From Candidatus Stahliibacteriota bacterium (GTDB lineage: Bacteria > Hydrothermota > Tepidihabitantia > B3-TA06), in assembly GCA_030670165.1 (NCBI GenBank), contig DAOVCF010000003.1, positions 1 through 34,860 of the forward strand: DNA of 34,860 nucleotides, in the 5' to 3' direction. This document shows, piece by piece, positions 10,054 through 19,340 of this stretch (positions are counted from its first letter, which is position 1; every line of letters begins with the position of its first letter). The notes beneath the pieces are model-generated. The model was not told the DNA's origin. It ran no database searches and was given only the letters and a program-made list of their open reading frames with translations. The position numbers were made by a program, and so were the translations under genes.

Positions 10054-10611
10054 CTAAGTCCTTTCCAGATACTCACCGGTTTCGGTGTTGACCTTTATCT
10101 TGTCGCCTGGCTCGATAAACGACGGCACGTTTACCTTAAGACCCGTTGTGGTTGTAGCCGGTTTTAGTTGTGCCTGGGCTGTGGCATGTTTCAGAGCGGG
10201 CTCGGTTTCCGCAACCTCCAGCACAACCGCTTTGGGAGGCCTCACGCTTATAGCTTTGCCTTCAAAGAAGGCAACCGAGATTACAAAACCTTCAGTAAGG
10301 TAGTAGCGGTTATCGCCGATCAACCTCATCTCGATGGCAACCTGCTCGTAGTTCTCGGTGTTCATGAAGTGAAACAGTTCGCCGTCTTCGTAAAGATACT
10401 GCATCTCGCGCTCTTCAAGGGTAGCGAGTTCAACCCTGTCGCTTGAGGCGAATCTTTTTTCAGTTGAAAGACCTGTAAGCACGTTGCGCAGTTTAAGTTG
10501 AATCTTGCCCGGTTTACGTCCCTGAGTCACGTGGCGGCTCTCGATCACCACGTATGGTTCACCATCCACAACGACGCAGTTGCCGGTTTTTACCTGAGTT
10601 GCCGGGATCAA
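10054..10611 (-). CDS. efp: Translation elongation factor P
   Basis: 185 aa; MQYLY...FMNTENYEQ, KPATTTTGLKVNVPSFI..GDKIKVNTETGEYLER; the TTG start overlaps the upstream stop. Confidence 0.95.
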   Translation of the reverse strand: MIPATQVKTGNCVVVDGEPYVVIESRHVTQGRKPGKIQLKLRNVLTGLSTEKRFASSDRVELATLEEREMQYLYEDGELFHFMNTENYEQVAIEMRLIGDNRYYLTEGFVISVAFFEGKAISVRPPKAVVLEVAETEPALKHATAQAQLKPATTTTGLKVNVPSFIEPGDKIKVNTETGEYLERT

Positions 10612-11984
10612 AGAACCTCCTTGGGCTCTACGTTTTGTTCTTTAAGCTTTGCAAAGAAAAGGTCACGGATACGCTGCAACGCATCGGTGGTTTTGGCCTC
10701 AAAGCGCAATACAAGCACCGGCTGGGTATTGGAGGCTCGAACAAGTCCCCAGCCGTCGGGGAACACTACTCGCGCCCCGTCTATGGTGATGGTCTCATAG
10801 TCCTTGGTAAACTCCTCCTGCAGAGCCTTGACGACCTCGAACTTGCGTTCGTCAGGGCAGGGAACGTGGATCTGGGGGGTGTTGATGTAGGAGGGGACCT
10901 CGGCTGCAAGCTCCGATAGGGGTCTCTTTTGATTCTCAAGAAGCCCAAAAAGTCTCAAGGCCGCATACAGGGCATCGTCGTAACCAAAATACTCGTCGGC
11001 AAAGAAGATGTGTCCGGACATCTCACCTGCGAAGGGAGCTTGTTCTTCGCGGAGCTTTGCCTTGAGGAGCGAGTGGCCCGTTTTGTACATTATAGGATTG
11101 CCGCCTCGCTCCCGGATATACTCCACTATGCCCTGGGAACACTTCACGTCGAATATAATTTTGGCTCCTGGATGTTGCTCCAGCACCTCCGAGGCCAGGA
11201 TAGCCAGAAGCTTATCACCGAAGATCAGCCGCCCCTTCTCGTCCATCGCACCGATCCGGTCGCCGTCACCGTCGAAACCCAGACCCAGATCGGCTCCGTG
11301 CTCCTGCACTAGCCTGCCAAGCTCTTCCATATACTTTGGAACAGTGGGATCGGCAAGATGAACAGGGAAGCGTCCGTCAGGCTCAAGATTTATGTAGGAG
11401 ACGTCAAGAGCAGGGAAGCCGGCAAAAAGCCGCTCAAGCAGCATCCCGGTAGTTCCGTTACCAGAATCTATGATTACCTTTCTCGGTTCCGTAAACTCAA
11501 ACGAGCGGTGCATGTAATTAAGATACGCATGGGTAGGATCGAGTTGCTCTATTCTTCCCGTTCCTTTGCTGAATCTTTCTTCCTCTATTCGTTTTTTAAG
11601 TTCCTGGATGGCATCACCGTACAGGCTTTGTTTCGCTTCGCAGATCTTGAACCCGTTCTGATCAGCGGGGTTGTGGCTTCCGGTAATCATCACCCCGGTA
11701 TCCAGATCGAAATGGTGCAGGGTGAAGTAAAGCAAAGGGGTGGGTATAACGCCCAGATCCACCACGTTAACGCCTGCAGCTTTGATTCCTTCTGAGAGAT
11801 TATCAAACAACCTTGGCGAGCTTAACCGGATGTCACGTCCGACCGCGACCCACACAACCCCGCGCTCGGCTGCTCGTGATGCAAGTGCCCGACCAATTGA
11901 GGCTACCGCCTCGTGGGTGAAATCCCGATCGGCTACACCGCGGATGTCATAGGCACGGAAGATTAAAGGATTTACATCCCCCAT
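10608..11984 (-). CDS. Phosphomannomutase/phosphoglucomutase (AlgC-like)
   Basis: IFRAYDIRG, catalytic TGSHNP, metal loop FDGDGDR, GEMSGHIFF, GWGLVRASNTQP. Confidence 0.95.
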   Translation of the reverse strand: MGDVNPLIFRAYDIRGVADRDFTHEAVASIGRALASRAAERGVVWVAVGRDIRLSSPRLFDNLSEGIKAAGVNVVDLGVIPTPLLYFTLHHFDLDTGVMITGSHNPADQNGFKICEAKQSLYGDAIQELKKRIEEERFSKGTGRIEQLDPTHAYLNYMHRSFEFTEPRKVIIDSGNGTTGMLLERLFAGFPALDVSYINLEPDGRFPVHLADPTVPKYMEELGRLVQEHGADLGLGFDGDGDRIGAMDEKGRLIFGDKLLAILASEVLEQHPGAKIIFDVKCSQGIVEYIRERGGNPIMYKTGHSLLKAKLREEQAPFAGEMSGHIFFADEYFGYDDALYAALRLFGLLENQKRPLSELAAEVPSYINTPQIHVPCPDERKFEVVKALQEEFTKDYETITIDGARVVFPDGWGLVRASNTQPVLVLRFEAKTTDALQRIRDLFFAKLKEQNVEPKEVL

Positions 11985-12042
11985 CTACATCTCCTTGTTA
12001 CATTGCGGGTTACGCTTATGTTGATCTATCCCGGCTATTTCC

Positions 12043-12753
12043 TTATTGAGCAATTATACCCAGCCACTCCCTTAGAAGGAACTGAACGCGACCTATCAGG
12101 AGCGAAACACGCGACATGACCGTAAGCCCGAAGGTGGCGCCGAATCCCAGCATGATGAATACGATGCCTACCTTGGAAACAGGGCTCAACACACTTTTTT
12201 CTTTGCGTGAGAAGAAGAAGTAGGCGAGGGTGGTGAGTATTCCTATAAGCAGTATAATCGCCCAGATGCCTGGCCAGGGGTTTCCGGGTTGGAACATCTT
12301 AGGCAAAACCAGGGATGCCTTGGTCTGCTCGAATATGGTGGCCTGGAAGATGAGCGGGATTGCGATACCCGATCCTATACCCAGAGCGATTGAGATGGGG
12401 ATTCGCACCAGCCAGGAGACTTTGGGTATGAGTCGTGTGAAGTAAAGGAGTCCTATAGCGATGGGTATTATGAGGATGAGACGCCCTTGCACGAACAAGG
12501 GGCGCAGCGCGATCTGCCATAAGCCCAGCCACCAGGTCAGGGCCAGGCCGTAACCTAATGCAAGGCCCACGAAGAGGTGTTCGGCTACCCTGTAGATCGG
12601 ATTGTCACGGTAGAGTATGCTGAAGATGGCAAGCGTAAGTAAGGCGGCGATCCAAACCCATACGCTCTTTGAGACCGGAAGGAAGACGATGGCTAGAACG
12701 ATCAATACCACTGCGACTGCCAGGAAAATTACTGTAGGGATCCACTTCTTCAT
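12043..12753 (-). CDS. Uncharacterised polytopic membrane protein (about 7 TM), cluster gene 4
   Basis: Strongly hydrophobic; motifs YRDNPIYRVAEHLFVG and GFGATFGLTVMSRVSLLIGR; ATGA overlap with the upstream gene. Confidence 0.85.
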   Translation of the reverse strand: MKKWIPTVIFLAVAVVLIVLAIVFLPVSKSVWVWIAALLTLAIFSILYRDNPIYRVAEHLFVGLALGYGLALTWWLGLWQIALRPLFVQGRLILIIPIAIGLLYFTRLIPKVSWLVRIPISIALGIGSGIAIPLIFQATIFEQTKASLVLPKMFQPGNPWPGIWAIILLIGILTTLAYFFFSRKEKSVLSPVSKVGIVFIMLGFGATFGLTVMSRVSLLIGRVQFLLREWLGIIAQ

Positions 12754-14297
12754 TTTTTCCTCCCGGTTGTAAAGTAGCTTATGTTGCCGAGGATCACAAA
12801 CAGGATGATTATGAGAAGGGAGGCCGAGAGAGCGGGTAGTGCCTGTGTGCCTCGCAGGAAGATGCTGCGCTGTACTTCTTTCTTAAGCTCCGTTGGTTGC
12901 TCCTCTTCCAGAATCTCGGTTAATTCGGTTCTCAGGATTTCCTCAGCCATAGTCTGGGTGGTTTCAGTACCGGGAAAGTTGATGCTTATCTTGTCTTTCA
13001 AGGCTTCCTTGAGTTCTTGTCTTAATCGGGCTTTTGCTGGCAACTCGGCGGTTAGAATCTCCGGGGGCGGTGGTTGGAAAAGCCCGGTCAAGATATCCCT
13101 TAGTTCAGTATTGATAAGGGCATCCACTTTGGCTTTGATAACCTCTGGTTTCTTCTGCTCTGGCTCGATTTCTAGTCTATCTCCAAGGATTACCCCTAGA
13201 AGTTGCTTTAATTCGATCTTTAGAATGGTGTCCAGCATGACATTAGACACATCGTAGAGGTTGGCGATCGCCAGCATCTTATCTCTGTTCAGTGAAAGCT
13301 CCTGGCCTTCCAAGGTTACGGTGGTGTTTTTGTGTTTTTGTTTTATCACCAGGTTGCGGTAGTAGACGGTGGTGTCAGAAAACTCAATTAAGGAAAGTGG
13401 CTTTTCAAATCTGCTTTTCGATTCTAGGGCTTTTTCTATGCCGGGCAAGTCAAGATCGAACCGCCGGGCCAGACTTACTATGTCGTTTGAATCAGCGTCA
13501 TAGCTCTGCTTTTCTATGGTTACATTGTAGGAGTCCTTTCCAAGGTATTTGACCACCACGTTGGGGTAGTAACGATCCTTTGCCAGGCGTTCGTATTCGG
13601 CGCCCGCCTTCATCCCGGCAAGCATCCCTACGAACTGTTTGGAACCAAGGAAGGGATAGATATCCGCTACTGATACCGCGGTTACGCCTGTAGCCACCGG
13701 AACATCGTAGGGTGTATGGGCGTAGTAGACCCAGTAGCCGTAAAGGCTTGATCCGGTGAAGTCCATTGCAAGGCCTAGGTTGTCGTAGTTCCTTATTCCC
13801 TCCATGACGGGCAGTTCAGACAAAGGGGTGTCGAAGTAATCGGTTGGGAAGACCTGGTCGATAAAGTTGCCCATACCGAGAACTACTGCAACCGGGCTGG
13901 GTTTCCAGCCGAGAAGAACGTAATCTATGCCGTATTCCTTGTTGTGTTCTTCAGCCAGTCTTGTTAGAACCTCAAGGCCGATATCGGTTCCCTGGATAGG
14001 AAGGGCCATAACCAGTAGCGGGATATTCCGAGCGAAGGCGTGACGGATAATCGCTTCGAGTTGAGGTTTAAGCTCGGGTTCGGTCTGGGGATCGAAATCA
14101 ACTGACAGCAAAATGGCCTTTCGTTGACCGTTGGGGTCTATGCTCTCGATGTGATCGAATACGCTTTTTGTCCGTGGCATGGCGCGAACCTTGGACGGGA
14201 GTTTCACCGTGAGTATAAGGGGTACGATCACTGTAACAGCCAGAACCATGTAGATGATGCGGCGATCTATCTTACCTAGTTTTTCCCAGAAGTTCAT
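12750..14297 (-). CDS. Uncharacterised membrane protein with large extracytoplasmic alpha/beta domain, cluster gene 3
   Basis: N-terminal TM after IDRRIIY; EYGIDYVLLGW; GMLAGMKAGAEYE; C-terminal TM ending ILGNISYF; ATGA overlaps on both sides. Confidence 0.85.
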   Translation of the reverse strand: MNFWEKLGKIDRRIIYMVLAVTVIVPLILTVKLPSKVRAMPRTKSVFDHIESIDPNGQRKAILLSVDFDPQTEPELKPQLEAIIRHAFARNIPLLVMALPIQGTDIGLEVLTRLAEEHNKEYGIDYVLLGWKPSPVAVVLGMGNFIDQVFPTDYFDTPLSELPVMEGIRNYDNLGLAMDFTGSSLYGYWVYYAHTPYDVPVATGVTAVSVADIYPFLGSKQFVGMLAGMKAGAEYERLAKDRYYPNVVVKYLGKDSYNVTIEKQSYDADSNDIVSLARRFDLDLPGIEKALESKSRFEKPLSLIEFSDTTVYYRNLVIKQKHKNTTVTLEGQELSLNRDKMLAIANLYDVSNVMLDTILKIELKQLLGVILGDRLEIEPEQKKPEVIKAKVDALINTELRDILTGLFQPPPPEILTAELPAKARLRQELKEALKDKISINFPGTETTQTMAEEILRTELTEILEEEQPTELKKEVQRSIFLRGTQALPALSASLLIIILFVILGNISYFTTGRKK

Positions 14298-14956
14298 TTC
14301 GTACCTCCGATGTAGCCGCGTTCAATGCCGAGTATGATCTTCAGTGAGGTTGCGATTCCGCCGAGGCTTGCCCCAAGGAGTATTCCGCGCTTGGCAGCCA
14401 TGTTGGGTACTGAAAGCAGCCATTCGCCGAGGTCTCCGAGAGGTAGCACGTTATAGAAGATGATGGAGAGCATGATGATGAAGGCCGCGATTAGAAGAAG
14501 AATGGAAACCAGCGACTTTGCACGGAACGAACGGTAGGCCGCAGATGCGATGTAGAAGGCAAGCACCGAGAACATCGTGGCTCCTAGAGGAACCATCATG
14601 TAGTTGTAGAAGTTGGCGAAAAGGTAGGTGAAGACCGGGATCTGCTGTCCATGAACGGTTACTGGAAGCCAACTCATGTTTGGAGCGCGTCCGATGATAC
14701 CGATTACGGCCATGATAACTAGTGCACCAAGGGCTATTGGGCTGTAGGCCCATCCTTCCTTCTTGTGCCTGATCTTGGTCGCGTGGTGGGTGACGAAGCT
14801 TGCAAGACCGATGATGAAGGCGAAGGAACCTATAACCCTGAGCCATTCCAGGGCGGTGTTCTTGAAATACTGGGAGAACTGGTGAGGTATGAAGAACTGG
14901 ATCATCAATACGATACCAAGCACCAGGGTTATAGTTAAGGGTATTCTGCGTTTCAT
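14294..14956 (-). CDS. Uncharacterised polytopic membrane protein (about 6 TM), cluster gene 2
   Basis: Hydrophobic; motifs PLGATMFSVLAFYIASAAYRSFR and VPNMAAKRGI...LKIILGIER. Confidence 0.85.
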   Translation of the reverse strand: MKRRIPLTITLVLGIVLMIQFFIPHQFSQYFKNTALEWLRVIGSFAFIIGLASFVTHHATKIRHKKEGWAYSPIALGALVIMAVIGIIGRAPNMSWLPVTVHGQQIPVFTYLFANFYNYMMVPLGATMFSVLAFYIASAAYRSFRAKSLVSILLLIAAFIIMLSIIFYNVLPLGDLGEWLLSVPNMAAKRGILLGASLGGIATSLKIILGIERGYIGGTK

Positions 14957-14965
14957 GCCGCCCCC

Positions 14966-16111
14966 TTAGACCGAGGTGACGATTTTGGTTGCGAATTCAA
15001 GACCGAATAGAGCAAGAATAGTCAGTACAACAAGGAGTATGCCGATGGTGGCTTTACCCCAGTCCTGGGCCTTGATGGTTCCCACAAGATTGGGTTCCCG
15101 TGAAAGATATGCCGAGGCCGCGTAGAGCTCCTCCCCGATGATGGTGTAGTCGCAGGCGGTGATAAAGAAGGGCAGCTGTGCCGAGGCGTCGGTGCCCGCG
15201 ATCTGGATCGCACCCGAGATGTTACCGGTCTCGGCAAGAAGCAATGATTCCGCGTAGAACATTCCCAGGAAGAAGTTGGTGGCTGGTTTTTCACGAAGCA
15301 TTATCCCGTTGACTGCGGCAACGTAGGCAAACTGACTGGTGGTTACGAAGAATACACTGTCCGGGTTGAATGCGTCAGGACGACCTGCATCAGAGTAAGC
15401 TTCTTTAACGATTTCCCGGGCAACGGTGTACACGATAGGATCTTTATTTGGAACAATGATGGGGGTGTCGTACTGGGCCGCCTTCTTGGCTATCCCTTGC
15501 AGGATGTTAAGCGCCGCGATTGTTGCGATATCACCGATGCCCGAGAGTCCGGGCACGAACAGAATGGGGCGCCCCATCTCTGTGGCGCGGCCTACCGCCT
15601 CGTCAATAGCTTCCAACCCGGCGATCTTTCTGAGAAACAGATTCTTGCCTCGCTTCGCCTGAGAGATGAAGAACGTAACCAGAGAGAAGAAGAAGATCAT
15701 CGCAACCAGAACGTTGATCCTGCCTATATGGAACCACTGTCCAGCGGCCTGGGTTGCAGCCGAGGGCTCTGATACAATCGTTTCTTCCCCGCGAACCGCA
15801 GCCACCTTGTAGGTATAGTCCGTGAAGTTTGCGATCCCTCCGTCATCCACGATACTATCCGTACCTGGTGCGATAACCGCCACTGCTTGGAACTCTCCTC
15901 CTTCTTTAGAACGCAGGATGATGTAATCATCCAGGAGCTTGTCGTCCGGTGAAAGCTTCCAGCGTACTACCAGCTGATGACCTTCGTCGTTGGGAAAGTC
16001 TGAGACTTGGACTTCTGTCGCCGGTCTGATTGGCGGCAGCAGCTCTGCCAGCGAGTCCACTGGCGGTTCCGCCTGGGAGAGGAGAAGCGGAATTAGCATA
16101 AGTAAGGTCAA
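14966..16111 (-). CDS. Fibronectin type III plus DUF6754-like membrane protein, cluster gene 1
   Basis: TTG start with AGGAGG SD; signal-like N-terminus; FN3 pattern (VRWKLSPD...YIILRS...YTYKVAAV); TM; then LRKIAGLEAIDEAVGRATEMGRP...QLPFFITACDY..IGEELYAASAYLS, recalled as DUF6754. Confidence 0.8.
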   Translation of the reverse strand: MTLLMLIPLLLSQAEPPVDSLAELLPPIRPATEVQVSDFPNDEGHQLVVRWKLSPDDKLLDDYIILRSKEGGEFQAVAVIAPGTDSIVDDGGIANFTDYTYKVAAVRGEETIVSEPSAATQAAGQWFHIGRINVLVAMIFFFSLVTFFISQAKRGKNLFLRKIAGLEAIDEAVGRATEMGRPILFVPGLSGIGDIATIAALNILQGIAKKAAQYDTPIIVPNKDPIVYTVAREIVKEAYSDAGRPDAFNPDSVFFVTTSQFAYVAAVNGIMLREKPATNFFLGMFYAESLLLAETGNISGAIQIAGTDASAQLPFFITACDYTIIGEELYAASAYLSREPNLVGTIKAQDWGKATIGILLVVLTILALFGLEFATKIVTSV

Positions 16112-16120
16112 ATGCCCCTC

Positions 16121-16429
16121 CTATTTAAAGGCTTCTTTACATTTGCACGGCTTTGACCCGCACCGCGGGCAGCCCTTTCCGTATTTTGCTCTGGCTTTTT
16201 CCTCAAGGTCTATTCCAGCAAGATTGGCCAAAGTGCACAGCCACGCGAGAACATCGGCAAACTCCTCCCCTTGAGCCTTTTTGTCTGCGTACCTTATTGC
16301 CCGTGCCAATTCACCGACTTCCTCACTGAACCACACAAACGTTCGTGCCAGCCCACGGCCAGAATCCTTGTGGAAGAACTCTTCCTTAATCAAATCTTGA
16401 AACTCACGTACTCCAAGCTTATCTTCCAT
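16121..16429 (-). CDS. MazG-like nucleotide pyrophosphohydrolase with C-terminal Cys cluster
   Basis: WFSEEVGELARAI...EEFADVLAWL (all-alpha NTP-PPase EExxE...ExxD pattern) and CPRCGSKPCKC. Confidence 0.85.
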   Translation of the reverse strand: MEDKLGVREFQDLIKEEFFHKDSGRGLARTFVWFSEEVGELARAIRYADKKAQGEEFADVLAWLCTLANLAGIDLEEKARAKYGKGCPRCGSKPCKCKEAFK

Positions 16430-16437
16430 TGGCGCTT

Positions 16438-16465
16438 ATGATACGGTTCAGCGGCGCGTTGTCAA
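16438..16465 (-). promoter_or_regulatory. sigma70 promoter of the mazG...efp operon, leaderless
   Basis: TTGACA (16465-16460), N16, TATCAT (16443-16438); ATG 8 nt downstream; no SD. Confidence 0.75.
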
Positions 16466-16621: not shown

Positions 16622-18043
16622 CTATTCGACCAGTACGACCTTTCCTGCGGTCGCACTGCCCGAAGAGGAACGGATAAAGTAGACGCCAAGCTCGTAACAC
16701 CCGTAACACCCGTAACACTTCCCCCAGGTGATCATTCCAGATGACTCGGTAGCGTGCAGCTCGTCCACCTTGCGGCCAGTTGCGTCAAAGATGGAAGCAT
16801 GAAAGCCTTGTGGGTGATCCGCGTAGCGCAGTACAATCTGTGGGCCGATGGAAGTTACCAGCTTCCAGTTTGGTGCTTCAACAACCCGATCCTCAACAAC
16901 AGCATCCACGTAACCCAGGGAATCGGTCTTGATGAGCCAAAGATCCCTTTCCTCTGCACCAGAAGGGTGAGTAGACCCCACGATGATATAACCCCCGTCG
17001 CTTGTTGCTTGAACACAGCTTCCATAGGCATGGCCTTCTCCTTTATAGGTTCTTTCCCAGCGAGGAACACCACCCAGATTCGTCTTAATCAAAACCGCCT
17101 CATCCTCAGGGTTTGACGCCACTATCACGCAGCCATCAGAAGCCAGGGCCATCGAATTGTACCAACCGTCATAATCTACCCAAATCTGGGGCGTAGGGTA
17201 TATGTAGCCATCTTCATCCGCTAAGAATAGACCTAAAGCAAAACGCATAGGCATTATTTCCCAGACCCCACTAATCATGTAATCTCCATCTTCTTTTTCA
17301 CGTACCACAAACCCTTCCGATGCCCCTCCTTCAATGTCATCAAAGGCAGCCGTCCAAAGGGTATCTCCCTGATCGTCAACCTTTAAAAGCCAAAGATCAT
17401 GTCCATATTCTTCTAAGCTGGAGGTATAGCCTGTAACTATATACCCACCATCAGAAGCCTCTTGAACGCAGTGGCCTTCATCATACCATTCTCCTCCATA
17501 GCTCCTCTCCCAAAGAATCTCTCCAAGCGAATCCAGTTTTACTAGCCAAAGATCGCTGTGTTTTCTGCCAGTAATGATGTAACCGTTATCTGTGGTTTGT
17601 TCTATCCAGTTACCTCCTTGCCCCCAGGAGCCTGTTCCCTCATATGTTTGAGTCCACAAGGTGTCTCCAAGGAAATCAGTCTTTAGAAGCCAGGTTATGG
17701 GTAGTCCTGAATCGACCGGGAAAGTCCCTCCAAGGATGATGTAGGCGCCGTCAAAGGTTTGACGCACCCGGAACCCCCAATCCCGGTTCTTGCTTCCGTA
17801 TATCTTTGTCCAGACCGTATCCCCCAAAGGATCGGTTTTTAAAAGCCAGAGATCGCTCTCTCCCGCACCGAATGAGCGAGTATATCCTGTGATAACGTAA
17901 CCTCCGTCATCTGTTTGCTCAACACATCGACCTGCATCGAAACCTACACCGCCGTAGGTGCGTGTCCAGCCGGCGTAGATTGTCTTAGGTATGACGGCAA
18001 ACGTTGTAGCCGACAGTAGAATGAATAAGGGCTTCCTACACAT
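16622..18043 (-). CDS. Secreted beta-propeller-like repeat protein with variant C-terminal sorting domain
   Basis: Start moved to ATG 18043 (AGGAGG at 18054-18049); signal-like N-terminus; diverged GGYIVTG...DLWLLKTD..GDT.W repeats; C-terminus IFDATGRKV...GVYFI...KVVLVE. Confidence 0.85.
   Translation of the reverse strand: MCRKPLFILLSATTFAVIPKTIYAGWTRTYGGVGFDAGRCVEQTDDGGYVITGYTRSFGAGESDLWLLKTDPLGDTVWTKIYGSKNRDWGFRVRQTFDGAYIILGGTFPVDSGLPITWLLKTDFLGDTLWTQTYEGTGSWGQGGNWIEQTTDNGYIITGRKHSDLWLVKLDSLGEILWERSYGGEWYDEGHCVQEASDGGYIVTGYTSSLEEYGHDLWLLKVDDQGDTLWTAAFDDIEGGASEGFVVREKEDGDYMISGVWEIMPMRFALGLFLADEDGYIYPTPQIWVDYDGWYNSMALASDGCVIVASNPEDEAVLIKTNLGGVPRWERTYKGEGHAYGSCVQATSDGGYIIVGSTHPSGAEERDLWLIKTDSLGYVDAVVEDRVVEAPNWKLVTSIGPQIVLRYADHPQGFHASIFDATGRKVDELHATESSGMITWGKCYGCYGCYELGVYFIRSSSGSATAGKVVLVE
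16693..16719. repeat. 9-bp tandem repeat (CGTAACACC)x3 inside a CDS, encoding CYGCYGCY
   Basis: cgtaacacc cgtaacacc cgtaacact. Confidence 0.9.
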
Positions 18044-18128
18044 TGCATCCTCCTGGTTTTTGCCGGTTGCCCGGCGTTTACCTGAGCCAAAGACCATCTT
18101 GTAAAAACCGCTCTATGTCATTTTATCT

Positions 18129-18686: not shown

Positions 18687-19340
18687 TCATCCTTCGGTAG
18701 CGAAGTCGGTCTTCTTTGGCAAATACTGCCTGACCAGACCATTGGTGTGCTCGTTGGTTCCTCTCTGCCATGAAGAGTAAGGTTCGTAGAAGAAGCACCG
18801 GATGTCTGTTTCTTTAGAGATGACTTCATGCTCAGCATTCTCTGGGCCATTGTCAAGAGTTAGAGTGCGGCGAGCGTCTTTTGGAAAGCGGATCAAACAG
18901 TTGATCATCGCCTGGGAGGTTAAAGAAGCAGTTCTGGCATCCAACCTCTCGACCTGAACCAACCTGCTTGAGCGTTCTACCATGGTTAATATAGCCGCCC
19001 TGCTCCGGCGTGAGATCAAGGTGTCTGCCTCCCAGTCCCCAAACCTAGCTCTGGTCTCAACTTCAGACGGCCGGTGCTCTATCCCTATCCTGCCCGCTAT
19101 CTGTTCCGGCGAGGAGTCTTCCTTGAGCTTGGACACCACGTAATCCCTGATCTTATCGTTCTTTAATCGCATCCTGCGGCTCGCCTTTGACCTGCGCTTA
19201 TCCGCTCGCACCTGAGCACGGTGGTCTATGTAGGAGTGGTGGACAGGCGATCTGTTGCGCCGCAACTCACGCGAGATGGTAGAGGGACTCCTGCCTAAAA
19301 CACGGTCCATCTCTCGAATAGATCGCCCGTCTCTACGCAT
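18687..19340 (-). pseudogene. IS30-family transposase pseudogene
   Basis: HTH LGRSPSTISRELRRN, FGDWEADT, TLDNGPE, PYSSWQRGTNEHTNGLVRQYLPK; the N-terminus, the ISHETIY region and the C-terminal LNxRPR segment are missing. Confidence 0.88.

Follow-up and report, generated by a model that had tools for sequence, protein, structure and literature searches.

Four consecutive membrane-protein genes, here called g1 to g4, in a 34,860-nucleotide (nt) stretch of a Candidatus Stahliibacteriota genome (contig DAOVCF010000003.1 of assembly GCA_030670165.1; this whole stretch is referred to as the window) form a fixed, translationally packed unit that is kept across many phyla, usually in multiple copies. 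This cassette, whose first gene carries the Pfam domain DUF6754, shares both its synteny and its presence and absence across genomes with two mostly single-copy genes, u2 and u1, and in some loci with a third, u3. What is new is the finding that the cassette is part of a larger system, together with u2, a GlmL-like protein of the ASKHA (acetate and sugar kinase/Hsc70/actin) superfamily, and u1, a barrel-sandwich/KOW-like protein. The original prediction, made from the letters of the window, held the cluster to be a conserved four-subunit membrane module that had escaped description, and its gene order, tight junctions and unit-wise evolution across many phyla bear this out.

The cassette is kept as a unit across many phyla

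In the window, g1 and g2 are separated by a 9-nt gap (14957-14965), and g2/g3 and g3/g4 each overlap by 4 nt (14294-14297 and 12750-12753); the coordinates and junctions originally given for four consecutive membrane genes were exact. Within the phylum of the window (candidate division WOR-3, or Stahlbacteria), DUF6754 was present in 185 of the 201 genomes sampled and in 146 of the 153 of high quality, with 1-7 matches per genome. All 208 of 208 genomes from the phylum that includes G201 and G204 encoded it, mostly with 5 matches each, as did 56 of 201 Planctomycetota genomes (all at least 90% complete).

To this count of domains, two sets of loci add the arrangement of the genes. The first consisted of 40 WOR-3 regions, picked non-randomly among the best 150 places to spread over families, and two contigs from the window's own genome, which together held 55 g1 genes: in 48, g1 was followed by g2, g3 and g4 on the same strand with all gaps below 400 nt, and the other seven comprised three extra copies just 5' of a full cassette, two lone genes and two cassettes interrupted by 2.2-2.7 kb. 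The second came from a broad scan with one genome per species, in which at least 633 stretches matched and 76 loci were kept. These loci span WOR-3, Zixibacteria, metagenome-assembled genomes labelled 'Ignavibacteria', Eisenbacteria, Fermentibacteria, Latescibacterota, Edwardsbacteria, CSSED10-310, Armatimonadota, Brocadiaceae, Scalindua and other Planctomycetota (including anammox lineages), among others, and contain 97 g1 genes, of which 73 head a complete cassette, 19 lie too close to the end of the locus to be judged and 5 deviate. The synteny on which the original prediction hinged is thus kept in 48 of 55 and 73 of 97 cases, with median gaps of 9-10, -1 to -4 and -4 nt for g1/g2, g2/g3 and g3/g4. 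Tandem arrays of two or three cassettes are common. The initial remark that similar clusters of no known function recur in anaerobic bacteria and archaea was correct as to many bacterial phyla, but no archaeal member was seen among the 76 loci or in archaeal control genomes. The families are large, with at least 8000 clusters at 90% for g1 and 5239 representatives at 50% clustering for g3.

Paralogous cassettes also keep their subunits together. Among 120 non-identical cassettes, the pairing of paralogues derived from g1 agreed with that from g2 in 182, from g3 in 169 and from g4 in 171 of 186 comparisons, which are not independent of one another and for which chance would give half. This high agreement indicates, in line with the tree, that cassettes have been inherited as units since old duplications.

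The window's own genome (G000) carries a second, paralogous cassette with the same gene order on contig C15 (114-3755); its g1 is truncated by the end of the contig, its g3 also has an insertion, and it falls into another deep clade of the concatenated tree than the window cassette. Orphan g1 genes stand beside cassettes in loci L014, L029, L042 and L077, and lone g1 genes occur in L052, L100 and L024 (10105-10887). Such extra DUF6754 genes imply either that one cassette can work with more than one g1 or that they are remnants.

Two further genes travel with the cassette

We clustered the open reading frames flanking cassettes in 118 loci and scanned 22 recurrent neighbour clusters. Two of these, u1 (about 375 amino acids, aa) and u2 (about 600 aa), occur in 16 and 15 of the 118 loci, respectively, directly 5' of the cassette and on the same strand, in loci labelled WOR-3, Zixibacteria, 'Ignavibacteria', Eisenbacteria, Armatimonadota, Planctomycetota and Scalindua. 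Three loci and the window's own genome also encode a small hydrophobic protein, u3, 5' of u2; in that genome, u3 and u2 lie on contig C135 (12765-14937) and u1 on contig C195 (2166-3287), both away from both cassettes. By a hand count among the best 150 places for each gene, at least 32 WOR-3 genomes have u2 next to u1, and at least 10 have u2, u1 and g1 in one contiguous row.

Presence and absence follow the same pattern. Among the 201 WOR-3 genomes, g1 was found in 185, u2 in 180 and u1 in 180, and each of the three is missing from the same 15 genomes, those of genus g42. Profiles of g2, g3 and g4 found nothing in the five of these 15 genomes that were tested, with the g3 profile finding its targets in the window's own genome as a control. 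In Planctomycetota, where g1 and u2 each occur in 56 of the 201 genomes, a hand count of the overlap gave 54 genomes with both, 2 with g1 only, 2 with u2 only (one of them a weak match, 3e-29) and 143 with neither; u1 was present in 53 of the 54 genomes with g1 and u2. Of the 54, 24 have u2 at a distance of 1.6-3.0 kb upstream of g1, in the same orientation and separated from it by u1, and several complete Planctomycetota genomes carry all six genes as an operon. Such tables overstate the number of events because related genomes are not independent, but the agreement of synteny and co-occurrence is strong despite this kinship. A link between loss of the system and aerobic respiration was considered and rejected: COX1 occurs in 26 of the 201 WOR-3 genomes, all 26 of which have DUF6754, and in none of genus g42.

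The u2 protein matches Pfam family PF13941 ('MutL', GlmL-like, ASKHA) over its full length (E 6.7e-129; 431 bits against a cut-off of 27), and its identity across phyla is 60-71%. Its phosphate and adenosine motifs of the ASKHA type are invariant (D14-G16-S17-T18-T19-T20-K21, D288-G290-G291-A292-T293-T294-D295 and G422-S423-G424-G425). It scores below the NCBIfam cut-offs for GlmL (NF040745; 233.8 and 226.6 against 475), Or-4 (218 against 600) and the GlmL subfamily (167.7 against 204), matches PF01968 weakly, and gave no match in a profile search of Protein Data Bank (PDB) sequences. The cassette had originally been taken to be independent of an ATPase; that view is now doubtful, because both synteny and presence/absence tie the module to this ASKHA protein with its invariant phosphate motifs. 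For u1, no family was assigned: matches to RnfC_N and NqrA_N (E 3e-4 to 6e-3) and to the biotin-lipoyl barrel-sandwich remained below threshold, further matches were KOW-like, matches to PDB sequences were at chance level, and the ESM Atlas returned 'hypothetical' clusters only.

One WOR-3 genome (G022:C3:27095-28480) has an extra, shorter PF13941 gene (476-aa frame) whose score is far better (E 2.2e-164) than that of the u2 of the system, perhaps a true GlmL-type paralogue.

Predicted architecture of the four subunits

The features of the window are listed in Table 1. Numbers of transmembrane (TM) helices and topology were taken from a hydropathy scan and from charge distribution, and orientation is inferred from the latter.

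Table 1. Features of the cassette and its surroundings in the window
Feature	Position	Strand	Description
g1	14966..16111	(-)	381 aa, TTG start; FN3, TM helix, DUF6754, C-terminal TM helix
FN3 domain of g1	15746..16018	(-)	aa 32-122; predicted outside the cytoplasm
DUF6754 region of g1	14981..15745	(-)	aa 123-377; predicted cytoplasmic
g2	14294..14956	(-)	220 aa, polytopic, 6 TM helices, N-terminus predicted inside; no known family
g3	12750..14297	(-)	515 aa; TM helix, Rossmann-like domain (aa 41-243), insertion, TM helix; no known family
Insertion in g3	12858..13568	(-)	aa ~244-480; lineage-specific, absent from most homologues; alignment and AlphaFold2 model
g4	12043..12753	(-)	236 aa, polytopic, ~7 TM helices; no known family
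MazG-like small pyrophosphohydrolase	16121..16429	(-)	PF03819, E 2e-9; 9 nt upstream of g1; probably same transcript
PMM/PGM (phosphomannomutase/phosphoglucomutase)	10608-11984	(-)	Pfam; 58 nt downstream of the cassette, co-oriented
EF-P (elongation factor P)	10054-10611	(-)	Pfam; 4-nt overlap with PMM/PGM, co-oriented
Promoter-like site upstream of MazG	16438..16465	(-)	11/12 consensus positions; lead only

The suspected DUF6754 domain of g1 was confirmed by Pfam (PF20539, E 5.8e-120, 399.6 bits against a cut-off of 27, model positions 2-256 of 257). Hydropathy places TM helices at aa 132-150 and 356-374, and the AlphaFold2 (AF2) model, with a predicted local distance difference test (pLDDT) score of 85, has a fibronectin type III (Fn3) sandwich at 32-122, TM helices at 129-153 and 346-368 and, between these, a six-stranded Rossmann-like DUF6754 domain at aa 164-337. 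The N-terminus is a seven-strand beta sandwich matching solved Fn3 domains, and a profile search of PDB sequences with g1 found Fn3 domains only, matching this N-terminus. Foldseek and VIA-align with the full-length model likewise returned only Fn3, apart from poorly superposed Nir2 rows (root-mean-square deviation ~25); Fn3 filled the lists and left the alpha/beta part uncovered. Because a loop rich in lysine and arginine follows TM1, the FN3 domain is placed outside and DUF6754 inside, and g1 is predicted to consist of an exported FN3 domain and a highly conserved Rossmann-like domain in the cytoplasm. Across 52 homologues, 47 positions of DUF6754 are invariant, many of them polar and located after beta-strands. 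Relatives of g1 have one to several FN3 copies and bear the database names 'DUF6754 domain-containing', 'fibronectin type III domain-containing' or 'hypothetical'.

That g2 and g4 are polytopic, with about 6 and 7 TM helices, agrees with the hydropathy scan, which found 6 in g2 and, in g4, 6 clear hydrophobic segments plus aa 33-48. The count of about seven for g4 holds in the window, with one extra N-terminal helix compared with the 6 of the ~209-aa consensus. Profile searches with g2 and g4 against all PDB sequences gave no match, and the ESM Atlas returned 'hypothetical' clusters only for g2. The loop between TM3 and TM4 of g2 is probably outside, since FG-GAP and Kelch propellers are inserted there in homologues (P0124 was inspected); among 26 long g2 relatives, 15 have an FG-GAP propeller and 1 a Kelch propeller. 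A fusion of DUF6754 with g2 (P0123) was not used as a sign of contact between the two, as its Arg/His-rich junction looks like a frameshift read-through.

For g3, the scan places TM helices at aa 14-32 and 486-504 with the soluble domain between them, and the AF2 model (pLDDT 83) has a TM helix at 12-29, a very confident Rossmann-like domain at 41-243 and a TM helix at 482-514. The domain is predicted to lie outside because both short tails are placed inside by charge distribution. The architecture first proposed, a large soluble alpha/beta domain between two TM helices, is therefore right, but its size is atypical: the family median is 285 aa, against 515 aa in the window, and about 235 aa are a lineage-specific insertion, made up of a beta-rich segment (247-347, pLDDT 85-94) and a helical one of low confidence (352-465). 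In the alignment, this insertion is only partly common to close relatives. In a related contig of ~92% similarity from another sample, positions 12869-13261 are replaced by 85 letters and 13318-13453 by 137 letters. The helical part (window 12869-13453) differs between strains, and in a genome of the same genus (L036) g3 has 285 aa. Long g3 relatives carry CARDB, HEAT or DUF2795 domains. The set of invariant polar residues in the g3 alignment is small (E75, D153, Q221, Y235 and E236). Foldseek found nothing convincing (one match at E<=1e-3, with a TM-score of 0.09), VIA-align generic Rossmann matches only, and a profile search of PDB sequences chance-level matches only.

Relation to known systems

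The motifs SAAYRSFR, AAKRGI, GFGATFG and VMSR are present in the window as first quoted, and motif and family scans support the initial statement that Walker A or ATP-binding cassette (ABC), tripartite ATP-independent periplasmic (TRAP), phosphotransferase system (PTS) and redox motifs are lacking: Walker A, LSGGQ, CxxC and CxxCH are absent from g1-g4, which contain 1, 0, 0 and 0 cysteines, respectively. With g2, g3 and g4, no Pfam or NCBIfam family was found at E<=0.01 and only chance-level matches at E<=5, which extends to the catalogued permease families (TRAP, tripartite tricarboxylate transporters (TTT), PTS and others). Pfam scans detected no ABC family in g1-g4 or adjoining genes and no signalling output domain in any subunit. 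All six pairings among g1-g4 gave hhalign probabilities of at most 1.5%, and homology between the alpha/beta domains of g1 and g3, once suspected, was not detected (0.3%). As originally anticipated, no match to a characterised system emerged from Pfam, NCBIfam, PDB sequences, the g3 fold search or the comparison with RnfA/E profiles.

Of the known systems, several share individual traits with the cassette. Like Rnf and Na+-NQR, it has two six-TM subunits of ~210 aa with opposite orientation as judged by charge, a membrane-anchored subunit with an outside domain, and a soluble partner, u1, with sub-threshold RnfC_N/NqrA_N matches; unlike them, it lacks Cys, flavin and Fe-S motifs. PF02508 did not match g2 or g4 at E<=5, and a relationship with Rnf/Nqr was rejected at hhalign probabilities of 0.2-0.4% against two 43-sequence RnfA/E alignments from WOR-3 genomes. 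Ordinary RnfA/RnfE genes are present in the window's own genome (C107:3251-4445) and in 25 of 26 close relatives. Binding-protein-dependent ABC importers resemble the cassette in having an outside alpha/beta domain and two polytopic subunits, but the cassette has no ABC ATPase, Walker A or LSGGQ, and g3 is modelled as a single Rossmann-like lobe held by two TM helices. The likeness to PTS and energy-coupling factor (ECF) transporters is one of logic only, a mostly single-copy cytoplasmic module (u2, u1) facing several paralogous membrane modules per genome; there is no sequence or fold relationship to the cassette, which has no phosphotransfer or ABC domains. GlmL/MutL of glutamate mutase and u2 have in common the full-length PF13941 match and the conserved ASKHA nucleotide motifs. 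They differ in that u2, at ~600 aa, has an extra ~120-150 aa at its C-terminus, scores below the NCBIfam cut-offs and is linked to a membrane cassette, with no B12 mutase genes among the scanned neighbours.

Although g1 is a clear full-length member of DUF6754, that Pfam family exists only as a catalogue entry to which no function is assigned. No publication was found that describes its fixed partnership with g2, g3, g4, u1 and u2: 'DUF6754' and the Brocadia sinica locus tags BROSI_A1847-1851 brought up no paper in full-text searches, and the search listings on WOR-3/Stahlbacteria, GlmL and the Kuenenia complexome contained no mention of the system; supplementary proteome or complexome tables may hold relevant rows. 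We rate the system as probably outside every known kind, although a domain-only fold search of DUF6754, u1 and u2 could still tie it to a known superfamily.

Surroundings and expression in the window

The original prediction also linked the cassette to genes for a MazG-like pyrophosphatase, PMM/PGM and EF-P. These are indeed adjacent and co-oriented in the window, but the linkage is lineage-specific: of the 118 loci, 11 have MazG, 7 PMM/PGM and 7 EF-P, all of them within the lineages of the window and, for PMM/PGM and EF-P, within its family or order. Because of this restriction the three neighbours say little about function, and PMM/PGM and EF-P are outside the conserved system. A scan of the region for promoters and terminators gave site counts not above those of shuffled controls.

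Contigs from a metatranscriptome library correspond to stretches of g4 (12452-12652, without a difference), of g3 (13573-13655) and of g1 (15024-15506), and one spans the g2/g1 junction (14872-15050). They are compatible with expression of the cassette but show neither strand nor a single transcript, and DNA is possible in RNA libraries; that the rest of the operon was uncovered proves nothing. Among the RNA evidence, X19 is probably DNA. Near-identical DNA to window positions 10054-16429 occurs in metagenome runs whose labels name marine sediment, cold seep and salt marsh; 13 entries held at least half of the sampled words (two flagged as a possible source), and the holders span 13 studies.

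Further along the window, positions 16622-18097 (-) encode a 491-aa repeat-rich protein with a hydrophobic N-terminus and many 'DGGY' and 'LWL.KTD' repeats; these suggest a beta-propeller-like exported protein, for which Pfam gave a chance-level match only. A 217-aa open reading frame at 18687-19340 (-) reads by eye, with no family scan made, like a truncated transposase or integrase (helix-turn-helix and DDE-like part). Elsewhere in the window's class, 13 loci (L018-L029, L032, L057) encode a Wzi-like outer-membrane protein (PF14052) of ~520 aa 3' of g4 in the same orientation, and proteins with sorting tails of the type IX secretion system recur near cassettes in other loci.

Discussion

Our tentative preference is for a modular inner-membrane platform that uses ATP for translocation or assembly, a reading that we consider quite possible without calling it probable. 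The four genes would supply the membrane-integral part of a larger, so far uncharacterised system of the envelope, their products forming one hetero-oligomer that spans the inner membrane, with g2 and g4 as the membrane core and conserved Rossmann-like domains on both faces, DUF6754 inside and the g3 domain outside. The cytoplasmic u2/u1 pair would hydrolyse ATP and dock on the DUF6754 domain; one shared energising module would therefore serve several membrane modules that provide specificity, an arrangement of one energiser and many membrane modules that would resemble PTS or ECF logic without homology. Paralogous modules appear to differ mainly in outside domains of adhesion type (FN3, FG-GAP or Kelch propellers, CARDB, and the g3 insert of the window), which suggests a polymeric or surface-bound ligand, not a small solute. 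Taken further, the system might represent a new class of membrane machine, in which a shared ASKHA-type ATPase module (u2 and u1, with u3) drives interchangeable g1-g4 modules, each adapted, through outside domains of adhesion type, to a different surface partner or macromolecular cargo, but this fuller version we regard as doubtful.

Several points weigh against such a platform. No subunit has detectable homology to a transporter, secretion or motor family in Pfam, NCBIfam, PDB-sequence or RnfA/E searches, and it is for this reason that architecture is our sole ground for speaking of a translocase. Elsewhere, GlmL-type proteins are regarded as chaperones or reactivases of B12 mutases, and u2 might accordingly assist an enzyme instead of energising transport. 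The genome that contains the window has u2 (C135) and u1 (C195) unlinked to either cassette, and co-occurrence among relatives amounts to few independent events, the loss in WOR-3 being a single one. The 47 invariant positions of DUF6754 would suit catalysis no less than docking. Finally, the HEAT repeats of one g3 relative are typically cytoplasmic and fit an outside g3 domain badly.

Part of this evidence would be accommodated by a membrane-bound enzyme complex for envelope biogenesis or modification, acting for example on a lipid-linked glycan or lipid, which we take seriously while thinking it unlikely. The DUF6754 and g3 domains would then catalyse or bind substrate, one on each side of the membrane, as the many polar invariant positions after beta-strands in the former and E75, D153, Q221, Y235 and E236 in the latter would allow, and u2 would act as an ASKHA enzyme of kinase or reactivating type. 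Phosphorylation of substrates is known from the hydantoinase/oxoprolinase branch of the ASKHA superfamily, and the weak PF01968 match of u2 is in keeping with this. Two neighbours could be added, namely the Wzi-like protein downstream in 13 loci and PMM/PGM in 7, but both are lineage-specific; no catalytic family was recognised in Pfam, NCBIfam, PDB-profile or fold searches, and several paralogous copies with differing outside binding modules would be unusual for a housekeeping enzyme.

Adhesion-type modules such as FN3, FG-GAP, Kelch and CARDB, together with the variable copy number of the cassette, would also suit a structural or mechanical envelope platform for adhesion, for anchoring of a surface layer or appendage, or for motility. 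The cytoplasmic components of pilus and secretion platforms include proteins with the ASKHA fold, and u2 could by analogy be a scaffold like PilM, FtsA or GspL. However, u2 is in the GlmL/hydantoinase branch (PF13941) and not of PilM or FtsA type, and no pilin, secretin or motor gene recurs among the 22 scanned neighbour clusters, which makes this explanation improbable.

We regard as decidedly improbable the version first put forward, in which the four proteins by themselves form an ATPase-independent secondary uptake system or a sensor. The window operon lacks an ATPase gene, Walker A and ABC motifs, u1 and u2 are unlinked to cassettes in the window's class, and variable outside domains could act as sensor modules; against this stand the tight co-occurrence with u2 and u1 in two phyla and the six-gene arrangement in many lineages, and, for a sensor, the absence of any signalling output domain and the large number of parts (four subunits with ~16 TM helices). 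That g1-g4 are co-regulated members of a pathway that never form a single complex would accord with a complex being deduced from genes alone, but is very hard to reconcile with fixed order and overlapping junctions in more than 120 cassettes, the lack of subunit exchange between paralogous cassettes, and four membrane proteins without recognisable stand-alone functions.

Nearly all genomes sampled from two phyla (WOR-3 and a Zixibacteria-type phylum) have this set of about six genes, as do about a quarter of the Planctomycetota sampled. For this highly conserved set we found no name, solved relative or paper: g2, g3, g4 and u1 are in no family library searched, and g1 is only a DUF in Pfam. 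Even if the system were to prove a membrane enzyme complex, its list of components makes the question experimentally approachable. Should it instead be an ASKHA-powered translocation or assembly machine, it would represent a new energising principle in bacterial envelope biology and would account for a substantial group of membrane genes annotated as 'hypothetical' in bacteria from sediment and wastewater, among them anammox bacteria that can be grown in enrichment culture.

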